NCBI GenBank assembly: GCA_964475625.1
Contig: CAYYXK010000001.1
Location: 30,935 to 94,934 of the forward strand
Direction: 5' to 3'
Origin: an uncultured Thermoplasmata archaeon
GTDB taxonomy: Archaea > Thermoplasmatota > Thermoplasmata > WALJ01
DNA length: 64,000 bases
The position numbers and the translations under genes are program-made. This document shows positions 25,187-37,817 of this stretch, one piece after another (position 1 is the stretch's first letter; each line of letters opens with the position of its first letter). The notes beneath the pieces were generated by a model. It saw only the letters and a list, made by a program, of their open reading frames with translations, was not told the DNA's origin and did not search any database.

Positions 25187-25927
25187 TCACTTCGGAGTTA
25201 TTCCTCTCTCGGTGACGGAATATTCCATTATTCCGAGCCGTTCGGGGTGGTTCCTTACCTTCTGAATTATGAGGAAATGACTGAAATGCTTTTCTTTTCT
25301 CTGCTTTTCGAGCTCCACTATGGCATCCACTATCTCTTCCACACCGCTCTCCGTCTTAGTTTCATGGACCCCTTTCAGCATGGTTACCAGCACGACCCCC
25401 CTCTGATGCTGACTGTGTGCCTTGATAGTCCGTAGGGCGGACATGACATGCTGCGGCTCATAATATTCGAGAAAGAAATCCAGCGAGTCTACTATCACCC
25501 TGAAAGGCGGCTCCAGTTTGGATATCTCATATGTTACCTTTGTAAGGAAATTGACACCCTTTGATATGTCCTGTTTCCTGAGCCTCTTGAGATCCCTTAT
25601 TGTAACTCCTTCCTGTCTGTAACGACTTATCTCCACCTCTCTGGCAAGAACCTTCTCATAGTATTCTCCCCCTATGTTCACTATGTTTATGTTCGGATCC
25701 CATCCGAAGTGCTCCATGGTCTTCTTGACATCCTCGTCCCTTTCATTTGTCGTGAAATAGATCACGTTTTCCTTTCCAACGCCTGCCGATGCGAACTGCT
25801 TGGCGAAGAGCTCTGTGCCGGAACCCGGAGACCCGTGTACCAGTATCATGAATCCTTCGGGAACTCCCCCCAGGACCTCGTCCAGTTCGGGTATGCCTAT
25901 GCTTCTGTGTCCCGGCTCCATTACCAT
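25187..25927 (-). CDS. KaiC/RecA-superfamily ATPase-like protein (FlaH/ArlH-like) with Walker A lacking the lysine (GSPGSGTE)
   Basis: 'GIPELDEVLGGVPEGFMILVHGSPGSGTELFAKQF' is the KaiC-like N-terminus. The gene is translationally coupled to the upstream gene. Confidence 0.55.
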   Translation of the reverse strand: MVMEPGHRSIGIPELDEVLGGVPEGFMILVHGSPGSGTELFAKQFASAGVGKENVIYFTTNERDEDVKKTMEHFGWDPNINIVNIGGEYYEKVLAREVEISRYRQEGVTIRDLKRLRKQDISKGVNFLTKVTYEISKLEPPFRVIVDSLDFFLEYYEPQHVMSALRTIKAHSQHQRGVVLVTMLKGVHETKTESGVEEIVDAIVELEKQRKEKHFSHFLIIQKVRNHPERLGIMEYSVTERGITPK

Positions 25928-26496
25928 TCCTCCGTTATCTCTATTCTCTCGTCACAGACCATGGTGAGAGCACGGTTTATCTCATCCGAGCTCTGCTCCT
26001 TTATCGAAAGGACTATCGTATACGCATTCTTAGAGCGCAGGCTGTTGAAAAGTATGTGCATGAACTCGGAAAGTATGCTTATGTTGTTGTGTATGGCCAG
26101 AGAGTTTATCGAATCTATGAAGATGAGTTTTTCCTTTTTGGGGTCCAGTTTTCTCAACAGGAATTCGATCTTAAGCATTATGTTCTCAAGCATCGTTGCA
26201 CTCTCCACATACAAAACATGGCCGTTGGTGGCCTTCTTGTCCATAAGTACGCTGGAACCGCAGTCAACGAAATATATGTGGTCTCTCTTCATCTCCAGAA
26301 GGTCCATAACATTGATTATGGATGCCGCCGGAAGTGTGGAGTTTATGTATATGACATCCAGCTTCTTCTCTATGGATATCTTTTCGGTAAGGGCCCTTAT
26401 CACATCGAAATAGCTGTCGGAATTTACTTCCAGCCCTATGACCGATGCTTCGCTTATGCCTTTCAGTTTCTCATACGCCTGATCCATGACGCCCAT
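25921..26496 (-). CDS. Degenerate KaiC/RecA-like domain protein (no Walker A; Walker-B-like 'LIFIDSINSL')
   Basis: Its secondary-structure-like pattern resembles a RecA fold. Its start and stop overlap the flanking KaiC-like genes. Confidence 0.4.
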   Translation of the reverse strand: MGVMDQAYEKLKGISEASVIGLEVNSDSYFDVIRALTEKISIEKKLDVIYINSTLPAASIINVMDLLEMKRDHIYFVDCGSSVLMDKKATNGHVLYVESATMLENIMLKIEFLLRKLDPKKEKLIFIDSINSLAIHNNISILSEFMHILFNSLRSKNAYTIVLSIKEQSSDEINRALTMVCDERIEITEEW

Positions 26497-27266
26497 CAGT
26501 CCCCACCTCCTTTGAGCATGGGAACCAGAAGAACCCCTATCGGCGTCAGGTCCAGCACATATTTTGCCCTCGAATGGCTGGTGCCTCTCATTTTCACGAC
26601 CTGAAGTGTTCTCAGAAGGTCGCCTCTTCTCTCATAATTTCCCATGAGTATTATCCCGTCGGCTATGGCCTCCTCAACCCCGTATGTGGAGTATCTGGCA
26701 TCCGAAGGAAGTATCTCGGAAACAAGCAGGCTGGTGCAGCCCAACTGAGACAGTTCTTTTCCGAGTTTCAGTATGAAATCCCGTATCTTTTCCTCTGTTT
26801 TTAACTGGAAACAGACCGATGTCACCGAATCTATCACAAGTCTCTTTATGTTGAGTTCCTTGACTATGTCCCCCAACGCATTGACGAGAAGGTCTATCTC
26901 CTCAAAGGAGAACTCCGATTTCTGAAGCCCGAGCCGCTCGTATATGGCGGGCATGTCTATGAATATCAATTTTCCCTTTTTAAGAAGGTCCTCGCTGAAG
27001 AATTCATATGGTATCAGGTTTGCCAGAAGTTTCTCGGATGCCTCTGTGACCGAAACGAAAAGGCAGTTCTCTCCATACAAGGCTCCGTGCACAAGGAACT
27101 CGAGACTTGTGGTGGTCTTCCCAGTACCACAGCTACCTGTTATGAGCACCGTGTTTCCCCTCGGTATCCCTCCGTTCAAAATTGCATCCAGCGTATCCAC
27201 ACCAGTCTTACAGCGGGGTCTGTCAGAAGATTTCACGGTGTTTTTCTTATGGGTGTTGAGAGGCAT
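26496..27266 (-). CDS. KaiC-like RecA-superfamily ATPase with intact Walker A/B
   Basis: 'GVDTLDAILNGGIPRGNTVLITGSCGTGKTTTSLEF' is present, with Walker B 'LVIDSVTS'. Confidence 0.7.
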   Translation of the reverse strand: MPLNTHKKNTVKSSDRPRCKTGVDTLDAILNGGIPRGNTVLITGSCGTGKTTTSLEFLVHGALYGENCLFVSVTEASEKLLANLIPYEFFSEDLLKKGKLIFIDMPAIYERLGLQKSEFSFEEIDLLVNALGDIVKELNIKRLVIDSVTSVCFQLKTEEKIRDFILKLGKELSQLGCTSLLVSEILPSDARYSTYGVEEAIADGIILMGNYERRGDLLRTLQVVKMRGTSHSRAKYVLDLTPIGVLLVPMLKGGGD

Positions 27267-27468: not shown

Positions 27469-27510
27469 CTTTCTATTCCTACAAGATGTTGTGCCCGACG
27501 AGGGGCTGAA

Positions 27511-27526
27511 ACACAAGATATATGTG
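27511..27526 (+). promoter_or_regulatory. Putative NrdR box (acacaagatatatgtg), an imperfect palindrome resembling the bacterial NrdR-box consensus acaCwAtATaTwGtgt
   Basis: It is located between the TATA box and the nrdR start, about 20 bp upstream of the ATG. Confidence 0.4.
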
Positions 27527-27544: not shown

Positions 27545-28009
27545 ATGAAGTGCCCGTACTGTGGAAACGTAGACACAAAGGTGGTGGATTCCCGCTACTC
27601 CGAAGACATGGGAGCCATACGCAGAAGAAGAGAATGTCTCAACTGCGGAAAACGATTTACGACCTATGAAAGGGTGGAAATCGCGCCGATAATAGTGATA
27701 AAAAAGAACGGTGTGAAAGAGGAATTCGACCCCGAGAAGATACGTAAAGGGATGATGCGGGCCTGCGAGAAGAGACCGATAAGCCCGGAGGACATAGACA
27801 TAGCGGTGCAGGAGATAGAACGGGAAATACGGCAGATGGAGTCCATAGAGATCCCGAGTATGGAGATAGGGGAACTAGTAATGAGAAAGCTCCGCTCCAT
27901 GGACAAGGTCGCATACATACGCTTTGCCTCGGTCTATCGCGAATTCGAGGATGTCGAAACATTCCAGAAGGAAATAAACATGATATTGGAGAAATACGGA
28001 GGAAGATAG
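27545..28009 (+). CDS. nrdR: Transcriptional repressor NrdR (zinc ribbon + ATP-cone)
   Basis: 'MKCPYCG...DTKVVDSR...RRRRECLNCGKRFTTYERVE' is the NrdR signature. Confidence 0.85.
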   Translation: MKCPYCGNVDTKVVDSRYSEDMGAIRRRRECLNCGKRFTTYERVEIAPIIVIKKNGVKEEFDPEKIRKGMMRACEKRPISPEDIDIAVQEIEREIRQMESIEIPSMEIGELVMRKLRSMDKVAYIRFASVYREFEDVETFQKEINMILEKYGGR

Positions 28010-28010
28010 A

Positions 28011-30470
28011 ATGGTACTGGAAAAAGTAAGAAAAAGAGACGGAAGAATAGTGGAATTCGATCAGGAAAAGATAACTGAGGCCATCCAGAAGGCGTTCCTT
28101 GCAAAAGGATACATGAGTGAGACCGCAAAACTGCTGTCAAAGAGCCTTTCGGACAAGGTAGTCGGAAAACTTGAGAAGAGATTCTCGGATGAAATCCCGG
28201 AGATAGAAGATATACAGGACCTCGTTGAGGCGACTCTCATAGAGGAGAATTTCAGCAAGGTGGCCAAAGCGTACATACTTTACAGAAGGCAGAGGGAGGA
28301 TGTAAGAAAGCTCAAAGAGACCATGCTTGAAGTGGACAAGGTCATGGACGGATATCTCGACCAGATAGACTGGAGGGTGAATGAGAACAGCAATTCCGGC
28401 TATTCCCTTTCGGGCTTGCTGATGCACGCGGCAGGCTCCGTTGTTGCGAACTATGTTCTCACGAAGGTCTATCCGAAAGAGATTGCGGATGCGCACAGAG
28501 AAGGGGATTTCCATATCCACGACCTTTCAATGGGAATTGCGGGATACTGTGCCGGTTGGAGCATAAAACAGCTTCTGACGGAGGGATTCAACGGAGTGGA
28601 GGGCAAGGTGGCATCATCTCCCCCGAAACACCTTGAAACAGCTCTCGGACAGATGGTCAATTTCCTCGGAACTCTGCAGAATGAGTGGGCCGGTGCGATG
28701 GCATTCTCATCCTTCGATACATATCTCGCACCCTTCGTGCGCTCGGACAACCTTGACTATAAGCAGGTGAAACAGGCGGTACAGCAGTTCGTTTTCAGTC
28801 TGAATGTCGCCAGCAGATGGGGCGGCCAGACACCTTTCACAAACATAACTCTGGACTGGGTCGTTCCCGAGGATATGAAAGATGAACCGGCCATAGTCGG
28901 AGGAAAACTTGCCGATTTCACATACGGAGAGCTTCAGAAGGAAATGGACCTCATCAACAAAGCGTTCATAGAAGTGATGATAGAAGGAGATGCGAACGGA
29001 AGGCCCTTTACCTTCCCGATACCCACATACAATATAACCGATGACTTCGACTGGGACAGCGAAAACGCCACTCTTCTTTTCGATATGACCGCCAAGTACG
29101 GACTCCCGTATTTCCAGAACTTCATAAACAGTGACCTCAACCCGGGAGATGTAAGGTCCATGTGCTGCAGACTGCAGCTTAACCTTAAGGAATTGAAGGC
29201 GAAGACAGGCGGTCTTTTCGGCTCCGGAGAATGCACGGGTTCGATAGGTGTCGTAACATTGAACATGCCCCGCATAGGCTATCTTTCAAAGACGAAAGAG
29301 GAGTTCTTCGAAAGGGTATCCAAACTCATGGACCTTGCGCAGGAATCCCTCGAGATAAAGAGAAAGATCGTCAACATGAACATGGAGAACGGACTTCTTC
29401 CGTACACGAAGAGATATCTCGGAACCCTGGACAACCATTTCTCCACGATAGGGCTCGTCGGAATGAACGAAGCCTCACTGAATTTCATGGGAAAGGACAT
29501 AGGTACTGAAGACGGAAAGAAGTTCGCGATAGAGGTCCTCAACTTCATGAGGGATAAGCTTACCCAGTATCAGGAGGAGACCGGACACATATACAACCTT
29601 GAAGCGACTCCTGCCGAAGGCACCTCATACAGACTTGCAAGGATTGATAAACAGAAATATCCCGATATCATAACTTCAGGCGAGGATGAGCCGTATTACA
29701 CCAATTCCACACAGCTCCCAGTCGGATATACGGACGACATATTTGAGGCGCTCGACCTTCAGGACGACCTTCAGAAACTGTACACCGGTGGTACTGTCCT
29801 TCACGGTTTCCTAGGAGAGGAAATAGACAATGCGGAATCCTGCAAACTTCTCGTAAGAAGGATCGCCGAGAACTACAGACTCCCGTACTACACGATAACA
29901 CCTACATTCTCCATATGCAAACAGCATGGATATATATCCGGGGAGCACTTCACATGTCCGAAATGCGGTGAGCCGACAGAGGTATATTCAAGGGTCGTGG
30001 GATACTTCAGACCGGTCCAGAACTGGAACAAGGGAAAGAAGGAGGAGTTCAAGGAGAGGCTGGAGTTCAACATAAAGAAGAGAGGTATACGGCCTGCGCT
30101 CCGCCCTTCCGTCAATAAGGAATCGGACAGCCCCGCTTCGAATATGATGGCTTCTTCATCGCCTGCCGAAGGAGGAGAGGTTGCCGCAGAGATAACTCCG
30201 ATAAGCTCGGGTATCCTTGATGACAAGAAGGTCTCGAAATATGTATTCTTCTGGGCCAACCACTGCCCTCACTGCCCTGCCGTAAAGATGTATCTGAACG
30301 ATAAGGCGGATGGTATTCCCGGAGAGCACATAAACGTCGATACAGAAGAAGGCCGCGAAATGGCTCTGAATTACGATATAATAGGCACACCCACGGTCAT
30401 ACTTTTCGATGAAGGCGGGAACGAACTGGCCCGGGTGAACAATATCGGAGGATTGCGTAAATGGTTGTAA
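28011..30470 (+). CDS. nrdD: Anaerobic ribonucleoside-triphosphate reductase (class III) with N-terminal ATP-cone and C-terminal thioredoxin-like (CPHC) extension
   Basis: It has an ATP-cone, the glycyl-radical motif 'SRVVGYFRPV', and a Cys cluster 'CPKCGE'. The extra C-terminal ~110 aa contain 'WANHCPHCP'. GGAGGA is the SD at 27997-28002. Confidence 0.85.
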   Translation: MVLEKVRKRDGRIVEFDQEKITEAIQKAFLAKGYMSETAKLLSKSLSDKVVGKLEKRFSDEIPEIEDIQDLVEATLIEENFSKVAKAYILYRRQREDVRKLKETMLEVDKVMDGYLDQIDWRVNENSNSGYSLSGLLMHAAGSVVANYVLTKVYPKEIADAHREGDFHIHDLSMGIAGYCAGWSIKQLLTEGFNGVEGKVASSPPKHLETALGQMVNFLGTLQNEWAGAMAFSSFDTYLAPFVRSDNLDYKQVKQAVQQFVFSLNVASRWGGQTPFTNITLDWVVPEDMKDEPAIVGGKLADFTYGELQKEMDLINKAFIEVMIEGDANGRPFTFPIPTYNITDDFDWDSENATLLFDMTAKYGLPYFQNFINSDLNPGDVRSMCCRLQLNLKELKAKTGGLFGSGECTGSIGVVTLNMPRIGYLSKTKEEFFERVSKLMDLAQESLEIKRKIVNMNMENGLLPYTKRYLGTLDNHFSTIGLVGMNEASLNFMGKDIGTEDGKKFAIEVLNFMRDKLTQYQEETGHIYNLEATPAEGTSYRLARIDKQKYPDIITSGEDEPYYTNSTQLPVGYTDDIFEALDLQDDLQKLYTGGTVLHGFLGEEIDNAESCKLLVRRIAENYRLPYYTITPTFSICKQHGYISGEHFTCPKCGEPTEVYSRVVGYFRPVQNWNKGKKEEFKERLEFNIKKRGIRPALRPSVNKESDSPASNMMASSSPAEGGEVAAEITPISSGILDDKKVSKYVFFWANHCPHCPAVKMYLNDKADGIPGEHINVDTEEGREMALNYDIIGTPTVILFDEGGNELARVNNIGGLRKWL

Positions 30471-31162
30471 TGAACGGGATGCAGAAGACCTCGTTCATAG
30501 ACTATCCCGGAAAGATAGTCACGACCATCTTCTTCGGCAACTGCAATTTCCGCTGCCCATACTGCCACAATTCGGACCTTGTCTTCAACAAGGACCTTCC
30601 GCGGATCGACCACGGAGTACTTCTTGAACATCTTGAGATGCGCAAGGGAAAACTGGATGGCATATGCATAACCGGAGGGGAGCCCACTCTCCACACGGAC
30701 CTTCCCGAGCTCATCAGAGATGTTAAGGAAAAGGGATTCCTCGTCAAACTGGACAGCAACGGAACAAATCCGCGTATGCTTGAAGAACTCTTCTCCGAAG
30801 ATCTCGTGGATTACATAGCGATGGATATCAAGGCTCCCAAGGAAAGGTACTCCGATGTCGTGAAGGTGAATGTCAACATGGATATCATCGAAAACAGCAT
30901 AGATCTGATAAGAGATATGGCTCCGGACTATGAATTCAGGACCACGATACCCAGAGAGCTTCTGAGCCCGGATGACATAATGCGCATAGGAGAGTGGATA
31001 AAAGGCTCCAAAAGATATGCGCTCCAGCAGTTCAAGCCGAACAAACCTCTTGACCCGGCATGCATGGACTGTCATGGGTACACCAAGAAGGAGATGGACG
31101 CCATGGCTGAAAGACTGAAAGGCTATTTCGACGAGGTTCTGGTGCGAGCGAAGGACGACTGA
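30470..31162 (+). CDS. nrdG: Anaerobic RNR activating protein (radical SAM)
   Basis: 'FGNCNFRCPYCHN' is present. Its start overlaps the nrdD stop (TAATG); an alternative ATG lies at 30461. Confidence 0.8.
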   Translation: MNGMQKTSFIDYPGKIVTTIFFGNCNFRCPYCHNSDLVFNKDLPRIDHGVLLEHLEMRKGKLDGICITGGEPTLHTDLPELIRDVKEKGFLVKLDSNGTNPRMLEELFSEDLVDYIAMDIKAPKERYSDVVKVNVNMDIIENSIDLIRDMAPDYEFRTTIPRELLSPDDIMRIGEWIKGSKRYALQQFKPNKPLDPACMDCHGYTKKEMDAMAERLKGYFDEVLVRAKDD

Positions 31163-31196: not shown

Positions 31197-31394
31197 ATGA
31201 GCGATATACCTGCACACAAACACTGCCCGGTCTGCGGGATCTCGATCCCGCCGGATGAGGAATTCTGCTCCAAAAAATGCGAGAAGCAGTGGAACGAGAT
31301 GATAAAAAGGAAAAAGAAGAGCGCTACCATAATGTGGGCGCTCGTAGGTGTGCTGGTCGCACTGGCCGTATTCATGATGTTCTCTCCGAAGTGA
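31197..31394 (+). CDS. Small zinc-ribbon membrane protein (DUF2116-like)
   Basis: It has 'CPVCG...FCSKKC' and a C-terminal TM helix. Confidence 0.4.
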   Translation: MSDIPAHKHCPVCGISIPPDEEFCSKKCEKQWNEMIKRKKKSATIMWALVGVLVALAVFMMFSPK

Positions 31395-31398
31395 TCGT

Positions 31399-32373
31399 AT
31401 GATATGCGTGGGGGGGACATTTGAACACCTTCATGCGGGCCATAGGAAACTCCTCCGAAGGGCATTCTCACTGAATGGAGAGGTGCACATCGGACTGACG
31501 GCGGATTCCTTCGCATCCGAAGGGCGAGGAAGAGCTATACTTCCATATGAGAAAAGGCTGGAGAACCTGAAAGAGTTCTTGGATTCCATGGGCTGGGAGA
31601 ATTACAGGATATCGCCCCTGAATGATGAGATGGGTGAATGTCTGAAAGAAGAATGCACGGACCTTGTTGTTTCGGAAGAGACCGCCGGTGTGGCAGAGAA
31701 AATAAACTCAATGAGAATTGAAAAAGGGCTCGTACAACTGCGGATACATGTGGTCACATATGTTCTAGCGGAGGATTTCAGACCCGTAAGCTCAAGCAGG
31801 ATTGCATCCGGTGAAATAGATGAAGAAGGACATCTTAAGAGAGAACTGCGGGTCGCGGTGGGCTCGGTCAATCCGAACAAGGTCGATGCGGTGACCGATG
31901 TGATCTCCCAGTTCTATGATTCCATGGATGTGAAGGCTTTCGCTGTCGAATCCGTCGTTCCGGAACAGCCTTTCAATGAAGACACCATAAGGGGTGCCAT
32001 AAATCGTGCTAAGAACGCCCTGCACGAATGGGGCGACGCGGACATAGGTGTGGGGATAGAAGCGGGGCTCATATATGAGCCGATGACTGAAAAATACTAT
32101 GATGTTCAGTACTGTGCCATAGCGGATAGGATAGGCTGGATAACCCTCGGACATGGCCCGGGTTTCATTTATCCCAAAAAGGTCATGGCCAATGTGAGTG
32201 AGGGGCTTGCCATCGGTGATGCCATGAAAAAAGCGTACGGTACTGAGAACATAGGGTATAAGGAAGGTGCGATAGGTTTCCTGACCGAGGGGCGCTACAC
32301 ACGAAAGCTTCTTAGCGAGAATGCGGTGATAATGGCCTTCGTTCCGAGAATAAGAAAAGAAGACTACAGGTAA
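31399..32373 (+). CDS. Fusion protein: archaeal-type phosphopantetheine adenylyltransferase (CoaD-like) N-terminus plus YjjX-family inosine/xanthosine triphosphatase C-terminus
   Basis: The N-terminus has 'VGGTFEHLHAGH' (nucleotidyltransferase HxGH). The C-terminus 'VAVGSVNPNKVDAV...GIEAGLI...GAIGFLTEG' matches the PF01931 pattern. Confidence 0.55.
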   Translation: MICVGGTFEHLHAGHRKLLRRAFSLNGEVHIGLTADSFASEGRGRAILPYEKRLENLKEFLDSMGWENYRISPLNDEMGECLKEECTDLVVSEETAGVAEKINSMRIEKGLVQLRIHVVTYVLAEDFRPVSSSRIASGEIDEEGHLKRELRVAVGSVNPNKVDAVTDVISQFYDSMDVKAFAVESVVPEQPFNEDTIRGAINRAKNALHEWGDADIGVGIEAGLIYEPMTEKYYDVQYCAIADRIGWITLGHGPGFIYPKKVMANVSEGLAIGDAMKKAYGTENIGYKEGAIGFLTEGRYTRKLLSENAVIMAFVPRIRKEDYR

Positions 32374-32491: not shown

Positions 32492-32532
32492 AGGAATATA
32501 GGATATAGCCCACTGCTGAGGTGGCACATCCG

Positions 32533-34212
32533 ATGGCAGAAACAGAAAAAGTTTCGGAAAAGGAATCAAAAAAGTTCGATCTCTTCTCACTGATGGAGCC
32601 GTTTATCCGTAAGACTCCCAAAAAGGTGATGATACCTGCTAAAGAGGCAGAGGACCGGACGGACCAGGGTTCTATATACACCAACATCCCCCCCATAACG
32701 GACCCCAATGTAGATGTGCTTGAGATAAAGCCCATTGTAAAGGATTTTTCATATTCTCGGATATTGTATGACAATGCTAACAGTGAATATATATATCAGG
32801 CAATAGAGCCGCAGCTCAGTGAAAAGGAACAGGGATATCTCATTCTTCTGAAAGACTCCATGAGCAAGACCATGGACTATGAGTGGGAAAAACTGGCCGA
32901 CCATGATAAAAAAGAATACCTTATCGAGAGCATAGAAAGCTTCATCAAAAGCCGGAACCTTGACCTTCCCGAAGTAAGCAAAGAGAAGATAATGTACTAT
33001 CTTGTCCGTGATTTCATAGGTTACGGTCCGATCGATATTCTCATGAATGACGAGGACATAGAGGACATCTCCTGTGACGGTACCAACATACCTCTCTTCA
33101 TATTCCATAAGAAATACGAGTCGATAAAAACAGATGTGAAGTTTCTGGAGGACGAGGTACTTGATTCGTTCATAATCTCTCTGGGACAGCGCTGCGGAAA
33201 GAACATATCTGTGGCAAACCCGATTCTGGACGGTACCAGCAAGGAGGGGCACAGGGTTCAGGCAACATATTCCCATGAGGTTACCACCCGCGGTTCCTCG
33301 TTCACCATAAGGCGTTTCAAAGAAAAGCCCTTCACACCGGTTGAGCTGATAAAGTTCAATACCGCATCCGCTGAAATGATAGCGTATCTGTGGATGATGG
33401 TCGAGAACGGTAAATCGCTAATAGTCTGCGGTGGAACTGCGTGCGGTAAAACCGCGACGCTCAATGCGACAAGCCTCTTCATCCCTCCGGGTGCAAAAAT
33501 CGTTACAATGGAGGACACAAGGGAGATAAACCTGCCACATGAGAACTGGATTCCCAGTACCACGAGGAGTGGTGTCGGCGAAAGAGGCGCTGACGGTAAG
33601 GCCGCCGGTGAGATAGACATGTACGACCTCGTCAGGGCCGCTCTGAGGCAAAGGCCAAACTATATCATAGTGGGAGAGGTGAGAGGTAAGGAGACATACA
33701 CCATGTTCCAGGCCATGGCAACGGGACATACGACATATACGACCATGCACGCCGACTCCGTCAAGTCCATGGTGCACAGGCTTGAGAATCCGCCGATCAA
33801 TACGCCCAGAATCCTTCTTACCGCACTCAACCTTGTCATAATCCAGACCTTTGCGAGGCTGAAGGACCTTCAGGTCAGGAGGATAAAGGAGATTGTGGAG
33901 ATAGTCGGCTTCGAAGCGGAAACGAATGAACTTGTTACGAATCAGGTCTATGCATGGAATCAGATAACGGATACTTTTCTATATAAGGGACACAGTTTCA
34001 TACTCGATGCTATCATGGAAATGAAAAATATGACCCACGAAGACATGCAGAACGAGATGAATCGCAGGGTCGAGGTCATAGAGTATATGGTTAAAAAAAA
34101 CATAGTGGACTACCGGGAAATAGCCAAGATAATCACCGGCTATTACAAAGACCCGGAGGAGACCATAGAGCGCATAAGAGATGAACTTGAGGTGGAATCC
34201 GATGAGTCCTGA
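32533..34212 (+). CDS. FlaI/TadA-like type IV filament assembly ATPase (paralog 1)
   Basis: Walker A 'CGGTACGKTATLNA' is present, along with 'GEVRGKE', 'MATGH', and an archaeal FlaI-type N-terminal domain. Confidence 0.8.
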   Translation: MAETEKVSEKESKKFDLFSLMEPFIRKTPKKVMIPAKEAEDRTDQGSIYTNIPPITDPNVDVLEIKPIVKDFSYSRILYDNANSEYIYQAIEPQLSEKEQGYLILLKDSMSKTMDYEWEKLADHDKKEYLIESIESFIKSRNLDLPEVSKEKIMYYLVRDFIGYGPIDILMNDEDIEDISCDGTNIPLFIFHKKYESIKTDVKFLEDEVLDSFIISLGQRCGKNISVANPILDGTSKEGHRVQATYSHEVTTRGSSFTIRRFKEKPFTPVELIKFNTASAEMIAYLWMMVENGKSLIVCGGTACGKTATLNATSLFIPPGAKIVTMEDTREINLPHENWIPSTTRSGVGERGADGKAAGEIDMYDLVRAALRQRPNYIIVGEVRGKETYTMFQAMATGHTTYTTMHADSVKSMVHRLENPPINTPRILLTALNLVIIQTFARLKDLQVRRIKEIVEIVGFEAETNELVTNQVYAWNQITDTFLYKGHSFILDAIMEMKNMTHEDMQNEMNRRVEVIEYMVKKNIVDYREIAKIITGYYKDPEETIERIRDELEVESDES

Positions 34213-35218
34213 AGTTAGCGATGCATTCAAAGGCCTGGATACGAAAAAATGGAGCCTGTTCCATACGAAAAGAGTCAAGGCCGAAGATGTCATAGAGGGT
34301 TATGGTCCGCACATCGTTTATCTCCCGAAAGAGGCCGTCCCCAGTCAAATAAGACTTACACCCTTTCAACAGACCGCACTTCGTATCATGGGGAAAAAGG
34401 CGGAAAAAGAGATCGAAAAATATCCGGATTTGGATGACTGGCTTCTGAAATCCCGTATGCGTATGAGGGGCGAAGAGTATCTGGCATATGCTCTTCTGAC
34501 GACATATATCATGTGGGCTATTGCGGGCGTTCTTGCAGTTGTATTCATCGCACTCTATTCCGTGATCGGATTCCTTTCCATATTGATCGCACTTATAATG
34601 GTCATGATCGCATTTGTGATTAAACCGTTGATACTTTCGATGCCCAAATCGAAGGCCAAGGGCAGAGGAAGAGATATAGACAAGAAACTCGCGTCCGCCA
34701 TGTCCTTCGTGGCATCACTCTCATCCGCAGATGTGAATGTGGATGTCATATTCAAAGAGCTTGCAAAACAGCCTATATATGGGGAGATACAGAAGGAGGC
34801 CGAATGGATAACCAGAGACACCGAGTTGCTAGGTGTTGACATACTCACGGCCATAAAAGAAGGTGCCCTGCGCAGCCCTTCGGTCAAGTGGCAGGACTTC
34901 CTTCAGGGTGTGGTCACAACCTCCACATCGGGGGGACAGCTCAAGCCTTACTTCATAGTCAAATTACAGGAGTTCGAAAAGGACAGCCAGCTTGACAACA
35001 AAAGAAGGGCCGAAACTCTGGGAATGATGGCGGAATCGTATGTCACCGTCGTGGTCGCATTCCCGCTGTTCCTGATAGTCATCATAGCTATAATGGCGAT
35101 AACGAACGGACAGGCGGAATCAAGCATACCCATGCTCTATGCGGTAGATGCGCTGATGATACCTGGCTCACAGGGTATTTTCCTTTACATCATGTGGGGC
35201 CTTACACAGGAGGCATAA
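34202..35218 (+). CDS. TadB/TadC-like platform protein, N-terminal half (single T2SSF-type domain, multiple TM)
   Basis: It has polytopic TM segments around a cytoplasmic helical domain. It overlaps the ATPase stop by 11 nt. Confidence 0.6.
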   Translation: MSPEVSDAFKGLDTKKWSLFHTKRVKAEDVIEGYGPHIVYLPKEAVPSQIRLTPFQQTALRIMGKKAEKEIEKYPDLDDWLLKSRMRMRGEEYLAYALLTTYIMWAIAGVLAVVFIALYSVIGFLSILIALIMVMIAFVIKPLILSMPKSKAKGRGRDIDKKLASAMSFVASLSSADVNVDVIFKELAKQPIYGEIQKEAEWITRDTELLGVDILTAIKEGALRSPSVKWQDFLQGVVTTSTSGGQLKPYFIVKLQEFEKDSQLDNKRRAETLGMMAESYVTVVVAFPLFLIVIIAIMAITNGQAESSIPMLYAVDALMIPGSQGIFLYIMWGLTQEA

Positions 35219-35219
35219 G

Positions 35220-36137
35220 ATGTCCGATGACAGCTTTGATCTGGAAAAAGCGAAAGCCACCTCAAAAAAGATACTCTACGCATCCGTAGGAATGGCGGTA
35301 ATTTTCATATTCGTGGGTATCCTTGAGATGAACGGTTCGATGAAGACCATGTTTGATGCCTTCGACTATTTCATATTCGCCATACTTGCGATGACGGGGC
35401 CCTATGGCATATACAAAGGAAAGATAGACAAAACCATAGATGAGATAGAGAAAAGGCTTCCCGACTTCCTAAGAGATGTGGCGGAAGCGGGAAGATTCGG
35501 AATGACACTCGCGGATGCCATAGTTGTCGCCGCATCCGGGAGATATGGTAAACTGACCCCGGAAATAAAGAAAATGGCCGCACAGATACAGTGGGGAGTT
35601 CCGGCCACTCAGGCCCTCAAATTATTTGCCGAGAGGATAGATACTCCTCTCGTGAGGAGGGTCACCACCATAGTCATAAAATCTTCGGATGCCGGAGGTA
35701 ATGTCGCTGATGTTCTTTCTATGGTCTCTCACAGTGTAAAAGATGTCCACCATGCAAAGGAAGAATTAAGCATAGAGATGGTCACTTATCTGGCTGTTAT
35801 CTATATCTCATTCATGGTTTTCATAGCCACGATACTCATCCTTGACCTGACATTCCTTCCCCAGATGGAACAGGCCGGAGAAGCCCTGTCCCGTTCCGCG
35901 GATATAAGTAGTGGCGCAGGTTCCGTGACACTGATACAATCCGAATACATACCGGAGATCAAGTTCATATTCACACTCACCATCATAATACACGGAGTGG
36001 GAGATGGATTGGTGGCGGGAATACTATCTAAAGGCAAGTTCTCGGAAGGCATGAAGCATGCATTTATCATGGTCCTTATAGGTTTCATCACTTTAAGGGT
36101 CATGTTCGGCGGATTGAACCTTGCAGGAGGCGGATAA
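35220..36137 (+). CDS. TadB/TadC-like platform protein, C-terminal half (second T2SSF-type domain)
   Basis: Its architecture is similar to the preceding ORF. It starts 1 nt after the preceding stop. Confidence 0.6.
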   Translation: MSDDSFDLEKAKATSKKILYASVGMAVIFIFVGILEMNGSMKTMFDAFDYFIFAILAMTGPYGIYKGKIDKTIDEIEKRLPDFLRDVAEAGRFGMTLADAIVVAASGRYGKLTPEIKKMAAQIQWGVPATQALKLFAERIDTPLVRRVTTIVIKSSDAGGNVADVLSMVSHSVKDVHHAKEELSIEMVTYLAVIYISFMVFIATILILDLTFLPQMEQAGEALSRSADISSGAGSVTLIQSEYIPEIKFIFTLTIIIHGVGDGLVAGILSKGKFSEGMKHAFIMVLIGFITLRVMFGGLNLAGGG

Positions 36138-37817
36138 ATGGCGGGAAGCCAAGTGGTAGAAAAAGTGGAGAAAAAGGAGGATACCGCTCCCCCACCGGGA
36201 ATCAAGGACAAAGTGATATCGTTCGCAATAGGAAAGACGCCGGTCAAGATAATGCTTCCGAAGGAAGAGACATCCAGAGACCTCTCAAAAGACATCACAC
36301 TGATACCCAAGATAGTGGATATGCATGTCAATGAAATCGAGATAGAACCCGTTGAAGAGCCGTATTCATATGTAAGGATAAAGTACGATACGATATCGAA
36401 CGAATATATGTATGAAGTAATAGAGCCCCAGTTGAACGATGATGAGGATGAGGTTTTGATAGCGGTCAGGAAGGCACTTGTCGATAGGTTTAACCTCGTC
36501 GGCAAGGAGGAAATGAACAATAGAGAGGAGATTCTCAGGGAACTCACGGAGAAGGCCATAGACGAAACCGGTATAGAACTTAGCGAGATATCAAGGAAAC
36601 GGATATTCTATTACACGAGAAGAGACTTCCTCGGCTTCGGAGCCATACATGTCGCTATGATAGAGAAACAAGTGGAAGACATATCTTGTGATGGCGTCAA
36701 CATACCTATATATATCTATCACAGAAAATATGGCTCCATAAAGTCGAACATAAAGTTTGAAACGGCGGAGGAACTCGATAGTTTCGTGGTATGGCTGGCA
36801 CAGAGGTCGGGAAAGCACATCTCCGTGGCAAGTCCCATGCTTGATGCCACCATGCCGGATGGCTCCAGGTTAAATGCCACACTCGGCACCCATGTGACCA
36901 AGAGGGGTTCGTCGTTCACAATAAGGCGATTCAAAGAGGACCCGTTTACCCCGATAGACCTGATAAAGTTCAAGACGATGAGTTCCGAAATGATGGCATA
37001 TCTCTGGATTGCCATAGAGAACGGCCAGTCCATGCTGATATGTGGAGGTACCGCATCGGGTAAAACCACCACACTCAATGCTGTCCTGCTGTTCATCCCG
37101 CCTCAGATGAAGATAGTCAGTATCGAGGATACTCGAGAACTCAATTTACCCCATGAGAACTGGGTGCCTACCCTTACCAGAAGCGGTTTCGGTGCCAAAA
37201 ACCCCATAACCGGAAAGGCTGCGGGGGAGATAGATATGTTCGACCTTCTGGCGGCGGCACTGAGGCAGAGGCCGCAGTACATGATGGTGGGAGAGGTCAG
37301 GGGTTCGGAAGCGTATGTTGTCTTCCAGGCCATGGCAACGGGAAAGAGCGCATACACGACATTCCACGCGGAGGATGTTCAGGCAATGGTGCACAGGCTT
37401 GAAAACGACCCGATAAACCTGCCGAGGACCCTGATCGCCGCTCTGGATATCGTGCTTCTGCAGGGACAGGTGAAGGTCGGGAAGAACATGACAAGAAGGG
37501 TCAAAGGTCTTATCGAGATAGTCGGTACGGACCCGCAGACCGATGAACTCATCACGAACAATGCATATATGTGGAACCCTGCAGACGATACCTTCAATTT
37601 CAGCGGCCACAGCTATGTCTATGAAAAGGTCGCATTGACAAAGAACTGGTCGGCCCGGGAGATGGAAAGAGAGGTCAAAAGAAGAAAGGACATACTTGAT
37701 TACATGAAGAAGATAGGGGTGAGCAACTACAAAGAGGTCGCCAGAATAGTCTCCGCATACTACAAGGACAAGAAGAAGGTCATGGAAGAGGTCAGAAGGG
37801 TTCTCGAAGAGGAATGA
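36138..37817 (+). CDS. FlaI/TadA-like type IV filament assembly ATPase (paralog 2)
   Basis: Walker A 'CGGTASGKTTTLNA' is present, along with 'GEVRGSE' and 'MATGK'. Its start abuts the preceding stop (TAAATG). Confidence 0.8.
   Translation: MAGSQVVEKVEKKEDTAPPPGIKDKVISFAIGKTPVKIMLPKEETSRDLSKDITLIPKIVDMHVNEIEIEPVEEPYSYVRIKYDTISNEYMYEVIEPQLNDDEDEVLIAVRKALVDRFNLVGKEEMNNREEILRELTEKAIDETGIELSEISRKRIFYYTRRDFLGFGAIHVAMIEKQVEDISCDGVNIPIYIYHRKYGSIKSNIKFETAEELDSFVVWLAQRSGKHISVASPMLDATMPDGSRLNATLGTHVTKRGSSFTIRRFKEDPFTPIDLIKFKTMSSEMMAYLWIAIENGQSMLICGGTASGKTTTLNAVLLFIPPQMKIVSIEDTRELNLPHENWVPTLTRSGFGAKNPITGKAAGEIDMFDLLAAALRQRPQYMMVGEVRGSEAYVVFQAMATGKSAYTTFHAEDVQAMVHRLENDPINLPRTLIAALDIVLLQGQVKVGKNMTRRVKGLIEIVGTDPQTDELITNNAYMWNPADDTFNFSGHSYVYEKVALTKNWSAREMEREVKRRKDILDYMKKIGVSNYKEVARIVSAYYKDKKKVMEEVRRVLEEE

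Follow-up and report, generated by a model that had tools for sequence, protein, structure and literature searches.

A class III ribonucleotide reductase with a C-terminal thioredoxin-fold domain

The DNA analysed here, referred to as the window, comprises 64,000 nucleotides of contig CAYYXK010000001.1 (assembly GCA_964475625.1) of an uncultured Thermoplasmata archaeon. At 28011..30470, stop codon included, it carries a single uninterrupted open reading frame (ORF) of 819 amino acids, nrdD::trx, which by its profile matches encodes a class III ribonucleotide reductase (RNR), NrdD, an oxygen-sensitive enzyme of DNA precursor synthesis, which is extended at its C-terminus by a thioredoxin-fold domain. 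The gene is the middle one of an operon with the order nrdR, nrdD::trx, nrdG, all on the forward strand. The transcriptional repressor gene nrdR (27545..28009; Zn ribbon and ATP-cone recognized by Pfam) ends directly at the start of nrdD, and nrdG, encoding the radical-SAM activase (30461..31162; Pfam Radical_SAM E 1.1e-19, Fer4_12 E 2.9e-8), overlaps the nrdD stop by 10 nucleotides. The adjacency of nrdD and nrdG was also seen in relatives.

The N-terminal part of the protein consists of an ATP-cone (residues 5-96, 28023..28298; PF03477, E 7.9e-24) followed by the catalytic barrel and glycyl-radical domain (residues 125-686, 28383..30068; PF13597, E 9.9e-204). The latter match is complete, covering profile positions 1-562 of 562 with 678.6 bits (cutoff 26.2), and the models NF006126 of NCBIfam (PRK08270, 'ribonucleoside triphosphate reductase'; 1153.8 bits, cutoff 548) and TIGR02487 (587.3 bits, cutoff 326) were matched equally well above their thresholds. 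The Zn ribbon C636-x2-H639 ... C649-x2-C652 (29916..29966) aligned to the Zn-site region of the Thermotoga maritima enzyme, and the glycyl-radical motif S-R-V-V-G664-Y-F-R-P is evident in the sequence at residues 660-668 (29988..30014). Across 43 homologues, C636, C649 and C652 as well as R661, V663, G664, Y665, R667 and P668 were invariant, and H639 nearly so.

Beyond residue 669 the protein continues for another 150 residues. The earlier note on this DNA had described a tail after SRVVGYFRP at 30090-30470 with a Ser/Ala-rich linker and a CPHC motif, and all of these elements were found, the interval spanning linker and domain. A low-complexity flexible linker rich in Ser, Ala and Pro (residues 691-741, 30081..30233) was delimited by AlphaFold2 modelling and by variation among the homologues, which differ here in both length and sequence. 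In the full-length model the predicted local distance difference test score (pLDDT) is below 50 over residues 694-737; the linker of approximately 50 residues is thus predicted to be disordered and can serve as a tether. The linker is followed by a domain of approximately 78 residues (742-819, 30234..30467), identified by Pfam, AlphaFold2 and Foldseek. It contains the redox motif C752-P-H-C755 (30264..30275) and, at the position of the cis-proline of thioredoxin folds, T793-P794-T795 (30387..30395). The two strings quoted in the earlier note, VFFWANHCPHCPAVKMY and IGTPTVILF, were recovered at residues 745-761 and 791-799, respectively, with HCPHCPAVK at residues 751-759.

The Pfam search proposed in the same note placed the tail above the threshold of the Thioredoxin profile PF00085 (cutoff 23.5), with 30.6 bits (E 3.6e-7) for the tail alone and 26.5 bits for the whole protein. 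An AlphaFold2 model of residues 725-819, built with 20 homologues, reached a pLDDT of 85.9 with the topology beta-alpha-beta-alpha-beta-beta-alpha, and residues 743-819 of the full-length model a pLDDT of approximately 90. In a Foldseek comparison with the PDB, thioredoxins or thioredoxin-fold proteins made up all of the top 50 hits (probability 1.00, TM-scores 0.56-0.68). In the model the CxxC motif sits at the junction of strand 1 and helix 1, and the T793-P794-T795 loop lies directly before strand 3, the cis state of the proline being presumed from this position. Both cysteines and the proline of the CPxC motif were invariant in a 21-sequence alignment and in 37 diverse domains, and together with the proline loop they were invariant across hundreds of clusters, with T/V beside the loop proline nearly so; the x residue varied between H, N, Q, A, G, S and K. 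These data clearly demonstrate that the tail is a genuine thioredoxin-fold domain with a redox CxxC motif, fused in frame to NrdD.

Several narrower assignments of the domain were tried and rejected. It is not a classical thioredoxin, as TIGR01068 was matched with only 31.6 bits (cutoff 96.8), the motif reads HCPHC instead of WCGPC, and the model shows four strands and three helices and lacks the N-terminal beta-alpha extension. The description of the tail as NrdH-like could not be upheld: no match to the NrdH model TIGR02194 was obtained at E <= 0.1, and Glutaredoxin (PF00462, 21.1 bits, cutoff 22.9) and the MJ0307 model (TIGR00411, 27-28 bits, cutoff 92.75) both remained under threshold. The nearest solved proteins by sequence include 1a8l, 1j08 and 1fo5 (E 1e-6 to 6e-6), that is, the N-unit of the Pyrococcus protein disulfide oxidoreductase (1a8l, 1j08) and MJ0307 (1fo5). 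They share with the window domain the minimal thioredoxin fold of approximately 80 residues without the N-terminal beta-alpha extension, but are free-standing. By sequence, the domain is a relative, not a member, of the MJ0307 family.

Conservation of the fusion

Since most NrdDs end 20-50 residues past the glycine motif, a lost stop codon or a frameshift might have merged nrdD with a separate downstream thioredoxin gene; beyond this general consideration, nothing was found that speaks for such an artefact. Public collections contain the exact protein, whose 90%-identity cluster holds 12 members of 817-822 amino acids from independent NCBI, JGI, ENA and Logan assemblies. Length and architecture are the same in nine further 90%-identity clusters with 75-87% identity, and 18 homologues with 58-87% identity all keep the frame, the CPxC motif and the T/V-P-T loop. 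A scan of species-representative genomes revealed one open frame spanning both the NrdD core and the domain in six metagenome-assembled genomes (MAGs) of Thermoplasmata archaea; as five close thioredoxin-domain sequences were used as queries, the taxonomy of the named genomes is biased towards the clade of the window and spirochaetes. Distant fused homologues with 58-64% identity, annotated as Latescibacterota and Margulisbacteria, show the same gene order with no stop in between. In addition, the stop codon that nrdG overlaps is located after the thioredoxin domain, and three untailed relatives whose neighbourhoods were inspected have no separate thioredoxin gene that could have been fused. 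In view of the conserved frame, the artefact explanation is refuted and we give it practically no weight; the check proposed in the earlier note, whether the fusion is conserved in relatives, gave a positive result in six Thermoplasmata genomes and two bacterial phyla. A recent merger of adjacent nrdD and thioredoxin genes was likewise rejected, the lack of a thioredoxin gene in the three untailed relatives excluding it in those lineages.

Ratios of nonsynonymous to synonymous substitution rates (dN/dS) against five Thermoplasmata orthologues were 0.05-0.24 for the domain and 0.02-0.04 for the core. For the linker, values of 0.5-0.8 were obtained in two of three computable comparisons; it drifts, yet its frame is never broken. 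As dS was saturated (>1) in nearly all codon comparisons, these values are qualitative only, and in this qualitative sense the thioredoxin domain is under purifying selection.

Active-site residues and enzyme subtype

Two features, a third active-site cysteine within a double-cysteine finger loop and a glutamate, characterize the subtype NrdD2 of Wei et al. 2014, as described in PMC4493059 and PMC9669993. HMMER alignment to the T. maritima structures 4coi and 4u3e located the beta-A active-site cysteine of the window enzyme at C180 (28548..28550), with Y179-C180 corresponding to Y124-C125 of T. maritima. The finger loop carries a double cysteine preceded by a methionine (M384-C385-C386-R387, 29160..29171), S-M384-C385-C386-R387 aligning with S-C-C-R of 4coi, and E531 within NLEATPAEG (29601..29603) corresponds to the active-site glutamate E495. 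C180, the MCCR loop and E531 were invariant in the 43 homologues. Applying the finger-loop motif classes of PMC9669993, both NrdD2 features are present, the third cysteine in MCCR and the glutamate as E531, and the window NrdD would accordingly classify as a thiol-dependent NrdD2 enzyme that presumably uses thioredoxin. In the NrdD of Neisseria bacilliformis, the disulfide formed between the finger-loop and beta-A cysteines is reduced by thioredoxin (PMC9669993). The finger-loop methionine, in turn, has been tied to formate chemistry (PMC9669993), so that the window enzyme holds both residue sets, and use of formate is possible with Met384 retained.

The same active-site signature was found throughout the tailed enzymes. 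Every redoxin-tailed NrdD with a readable core possesses the double-cysteine finger loop, mostly as MCCR and as QCCR in P0375 and P0415, and the glutamate motif was matched in all of these cores except P0375.

Distribution of the fused enzymes

Residues 640-819 were used as a HMMER query against 1.84 billion representatives clustered at 50% identity. Among the best 150 clusters, at least 144 contain the glycine loop followed by a CxxC tail; 37 of these 144 are fused NrdDs or fragments thereof, and 107 are free-standing proteins of 150-210 amino acids. Tailed enzymes nevertheless form a minority of the NrdD family around the window enzyme (19 of its 120 closest homologues). The architecture is rare in the literature, not in nature: it is common in metagenomes and widespread in uncultured microbes. 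It had previously been called unusual, which is true of published work and of solved structures but not of sequence space, as the 144 clusters show. A precomputed thioredoxin-family Pfam match was present for only 2 of the 19 fused homologues, so the tail mostly escapes routine annotation.

In a neighbour-joining tree of the cores, the fused enzymes fell into at least four clades, and the split forms described below were sisters to fusions of the Margulisbacteria type. This tree is rough and without support values, and either one gain of the fusion with many losses or several gains may underlie the pattern.

Several variants were observed along with these enzymes. A second type of tail, resembling NrdH or glutaredoxin ('LFTTxTCPNCK...APTLVV'), is present on Firmicutes-type NrdDs (P0306, P0382, P0415, P0290, P0331) and represents a different subfamily from the CPxCP...PG...EG...TPTV type of the window. 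Several of these Firmicutes-type enzymes carry an intein at the finger loop, inside or just before the Cys-Cys motif. One NrdD homologue of 752 amino acids (P0188) shows a C-terminal tandem duplication of the Zn ribbon and glycyl-radical motif. P0015, P0068 and about 20 similar proteins of approximately 170 amino acids start with a remnant of the NrdD Zn ribbon and the glycine motif (MSKCGEKTEVYSRVVGYFRPVSNWNKGKKEEF), followed by a signal sequence resembling that of lipoproteins and by a domain that is unrelated; these may reflect faulty gene calls or represent a further type of glycine-loop fusion. Finally, an unannotated region of a human faecal bacteriophage (MT835493.1, 47431-47898, reverse strand) encodes a glycine loop, a linker and a thioredoxin match (100% query coverage, 34% identity, E 8e-22), and the module is thus present in at least one phage.

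A split nrdD in spirochaetes

The free-standing proteins of 150-210 amino acids turned out to be the small chain of a split NrdD. Split loci were found in Treponema and Spirochaetaceae genomes (L009:1576-4267 of a Treponema sp. MAG, and L010, L011 and L012 of Spirochaetaceae) and on a JGI contig (L001:3893-6642), where nrdR is followed by the large-chain gene, the small-chain gene and nrdG. The large chain of 703-719 amino acids ends just past the Zn ribbon with a charged helix of approximately 25 residues and contains no glycine motif. The small chain of approximately 170-220 amino acids begins with an amphipathic helix of approximately 22 residues, continues with TEVYxRIVGYYRSVxNWNKGKREEY, and ends with a variable linker and a thioredoxin domain as in the window, usually with CPNC. 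Coverage of the PRK08270 profile confirmed a clean complementary split, the large chain matching positions 3-657 and the small chain positions 648-683. As the large chain is without any glycine loop, the small chain is obligatory.

Searching with a small-chain profile retrieved 2771 clusters at 90% identity, mostly from spirochaetes, the named ones belonging to Treponema spp., T. berlinense, Spirochaetales and Treponemataceae. Their database labels read 'anaerobic ribonucleoside-triphosphate reductase' or 'hypothetical protein', and the Treponema small chain matched the NrdH model TIGR02194 with only 18.5 bits (cutoff 85.75). Searches for a curated family model or a literature description of a split NrdD returned none, and the split spirochaete enzymes are more surprising than the fusion in the window. 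As a separate observation, a 'Mycoplasma sp.' MAG (L002, P0003) carries a small chain beside the gene for the DNA polymerase III alpha subunit with no adjacent NrdD.

The closest parallel to the split enzyme is GrcA/YfiD (PMC8683613), which is likewise a small separate chain whose glycyl-radical loop docks into a large barrel. GrcA/YfiD, however, rescues full-length pyruvate formate-lyase after cleavage by oxygen, whereas the small chain of split NrdD is obligatory and fused to thioredoxin. Tentatively, and without leaning firmly towards it, we consider that the glycyl loop and the thioredoxin domain may form a portable 'radical + reductant' module that defines an undescribed subclass of class III RNRs, formate-independent and self-reducing, with electrons passing through the enzyme's own thioredoxin domain. 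In Thermoplasmata, Latescibacterota and Margulisbacteria this module would be attached to the barrel, and in Treponema and other spirochaetes would be a separate obligatory subunit of approximately 180 amino acids that re-associates via the paired helices. If this is true, the split enzymes would be the first natural class III RNRs to consist of two chains with the radical glycine off the active-site polypeptide.

Neighbouring genes

The mechanically called ORF of nrdR starts at GTG 27491, and within it the Pfam match to Zn_ribbon_NrdR covers residues 19-60 (E 2.8e-22), followed by the ATP-cone (E 2.3e-23). As the Zn ribbon begins only at M19, ATG 27545 is the likelier start. The extra 18 codons from GTG 27491 would run over a putative operator: a pair of similar elements, TACAAGATGTTGTG and CACAAGATATATGTG, spaced 31 bp apart, is located at 27480-27525, just 5' of the likely start. 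They may be candidate NrdR operator boxes of an autoregulated nrdR-nrdD-nrdG operon; a search with an NrdR-box consensus gave 0 matches at <=3 mismatches.

Downstream of nrdG, a DUF2116 zinc-ribbon gene (31197-31394) is followed directly by a gene on the forward strand (31399-32373) for a 324-amino-acid protein with a cytidylyltransferase-like domain (residues 4-135) and an NTPase_I-T/DUF84 domain (residues 155-318); its proximity to nrdG hints at a possible link to nucleotide metabolism. Further downstream, at 32521-37817 on the forward strand, lies a type IV pilus- or archaellum-like assembly gene set consisting of a T2SSE/PilB3-type ATPase, two T2SSF membrane proteins and a second T2SSE/PilB3-type ATPase. 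Upstream of nrdR, three consecutive genes on the opposite strand (25187-27266) encode KaiC-like ATPases of 246 and 256 amino acids on either side of a 191-amino-acid ORF without a Pfam match.

Comparison with known systems

None of the solved NrdD chains carries a thioredoxin domain. The NrdD2 enzymes of N. bacilliformis and T. maritima (4coi/4u3e) share with the window protein the glycyl-radical NrdD fold, the beta-A cysteine, the double-cysteine loop and the glutamate, although the window and T. maritima proteins are of low identity (phmmer E 1e-39 over the core). They differ in that their thioredoxin is a separate protein and their loop reads SCCR without a methionine, whereas the window enzyme has MCCR and a tethered redoxin.

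Among the archaea, Methanosarcina barkeri reportedly has separate genes for a dedicated redoxin and for a ferredoxin disulfide reductase, a finding ascribed to Wei et al. 2015. To judge from a title cited in PMC5704485, its class III RNR (NrdD3) resembles that of the window in being archaeal and in receiving electrons via a small redoxin, not from formate. NrdD3 enzymes have QCCR/A in the finger loop and lack both the glutamate and the methionine (PMC9669993), whereas in the window both are present, the redoxin is fused, and no reductase gene is nearby.

Full-text literature searches for a C-terminal thioredoxin domain on NrdD returned no description beyond one entry in a supplementary table, 'Glutaredoxin:NrdD' of Lachnospiraceae bacterium TWA4 (Table S1 of PMC6187632), and Burnim et al. 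(PMC9669993), in their treatment of C-terminal extensions of RNRs, describe class III with the glycyl-radical domain only. The TWA4 protein (NrdDd, WP_082039398.1) also bears a redoxin on NrdD, but it is a single database listing from a different NrdD subclass with a match to Pfam Glutaredoxin. A fusion with an experimentally shown reductant role is Grx::ATP-cone::NrdB of Facklamia ignava (PMC6187632). It belongs to class I and carries a glutathione-dependent glutaredoxin at the N-terminus of the radical-generating subunit, whereas the window protein is archaeal, belongs to class III, and carries a thioredoxin/MJ0307-like domain at the C-terminus of the catalytic, radical-bearing subunit. The architecture found here is an essentially undescribed variant of thiol-dependent class III RNRs and of redoxin-RNR fusions.

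Proposed role of the tethered domain

We propose that the CPHC domain probably acts as a tethered, dedicated disulfide relay of an NrdD2-type class III RNR. This role is suggested by the anatomy of the protein; all of the electron-transfer steps, the nature of the upstream reductase and any independence of formate are inferred. NrdG would place the radical on G664, from where it would move to C386. Reduction of the nucleotide, with E531 as base, would leave a C180-C385 disulfide, which the C752/C755 dithiol would reduce again in its own subunit or in the dimer partner. A linker of approximately 45-50 residues would be expected to reach either active site of the dimer. The oxidised domain would then be recharged by a reductase encoded elsewhere, either a thioredoxin reductase or a ferredoxin-dependent disulfide reductase. 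As segment 387-406 of the finger loop was modelled with low confidence and the CC motif lies away from the active site in T. maritima NrdD crystals (PMC4493059), we speculate that a mobile finger loop could present or expose the disulfide to the redoxin.

Precedent for such an arrangement is given by the glutaredoxin fused to the class I NrdB of F. ignava, which is the functional reductant of that enzyme (PMC6187632). Furthermore, the module has been kept beside nrdG in archaea and two bacterial phyla and even in the split genes of spirochaetes, which argues for a core role in enzyme function. The suggestion of the earlier note that a built-in redoxin supplies the reductant in cis is partly retained: with C180, MCCR and E531, the NrdD core belongs to the enzymes for which a thiol reductant is expected to be necessary. 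The domain is no source of electrons, however, but can only relay them from a reductase, none of which is encoded nearby. That it replaces formate, as was also suggested, is no more than a possibility, given the formate-linked methionine in the finger loop.

A number of observations weigh against the relay. The majority of the closest homologues (101 of 120, ~84%) are untailed with an identical active site, so the tail is not required for this enzyme type, and in the three untailed neighbourhoods inspected no separate thioredoxin gene lies between nrdD and nrdG. No gene resembling thioredoxin reductase or ferredoxin:thioredoxin reductase was found among the 30 ORFs of the window, nor any conserved partner reductase in the neighbourhoods of seven homologues. 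Retention of Met384 keeps a formate route possible. Redoxins are thought to be unable to fit into the active sites of class I and II RNRs (PMC4390871), and the relay does not explain how the domain would gain access to a buried disulfide.

The main rival explanation assigns the domain to activation or maintenance, formate or free thioredoxin driving catalysis. It would keep the glycyl-radical and Zn-ribbon region or surface thiols reduced, allowing NrdG to install the radical or the enzyme to recover from mild oxidation. An activating role of thioredoxin in the class III RNR of E. coli (Padovani et al. 2001, as cited in PMC4390871) would be a precedent, and the thioredoxin domain always accompanies the glycyl-radical loop and, where the gene is split as in spirochaetes, resides on the small radical-bearing chain and not on the barrel; the conserved Met384 also fits. 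In the same split enzymes, however, the large chain retains the Zn-ribbon cysteines, apart from the thioredoxin domain, untailed relatives are activated without it, and an NrdD2-type cysteine pair with glutamate needs a disulfide reductant in each turnover (PMC9669993, PMC4493059). We consider this explanation unlikely. Less likely again is that catalysis depends on formate and the domain is a vestigial appendage or a redox sensor or regulator, the CPHC motif reporting or buffering the redox state and, for example, shutting down the enzyme upon exposure to oxygen. Met384 would suit formate chemistry, no partner reductase was found nearby, and the variable x residue of CPxC indicates that the redox potential is not tightly conserved. 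Yet the CPxC cysteines and proline and the proline loop are invariant over hundreds of clusters, the domain is under purifying selection, and the invariant Glu531 and C385 would be superfluous in a formate-only mechanism according to the classification of PMC9669993 and PMC4493059.

The reductant of most class III RNRs is unsettled, and a thioredoxin domain fused to an enzyme of this type represents a natural experiment that predicts thiol-based reduction. The fusion provides a 1:1 construct of enzyme and reductant for kinetics and for trapping of mixed disulfides, and it poses the structural question of how a redoxin gains access to a buried cysteine pair. Judging from the split enzymes of Treponema, radical loop and reductant may act as a unit; these enzymes also offer a system whose radical-bearing piece can be exchanged, which is relevant to oxygen damage and repair of glycyl-radical enzymes.

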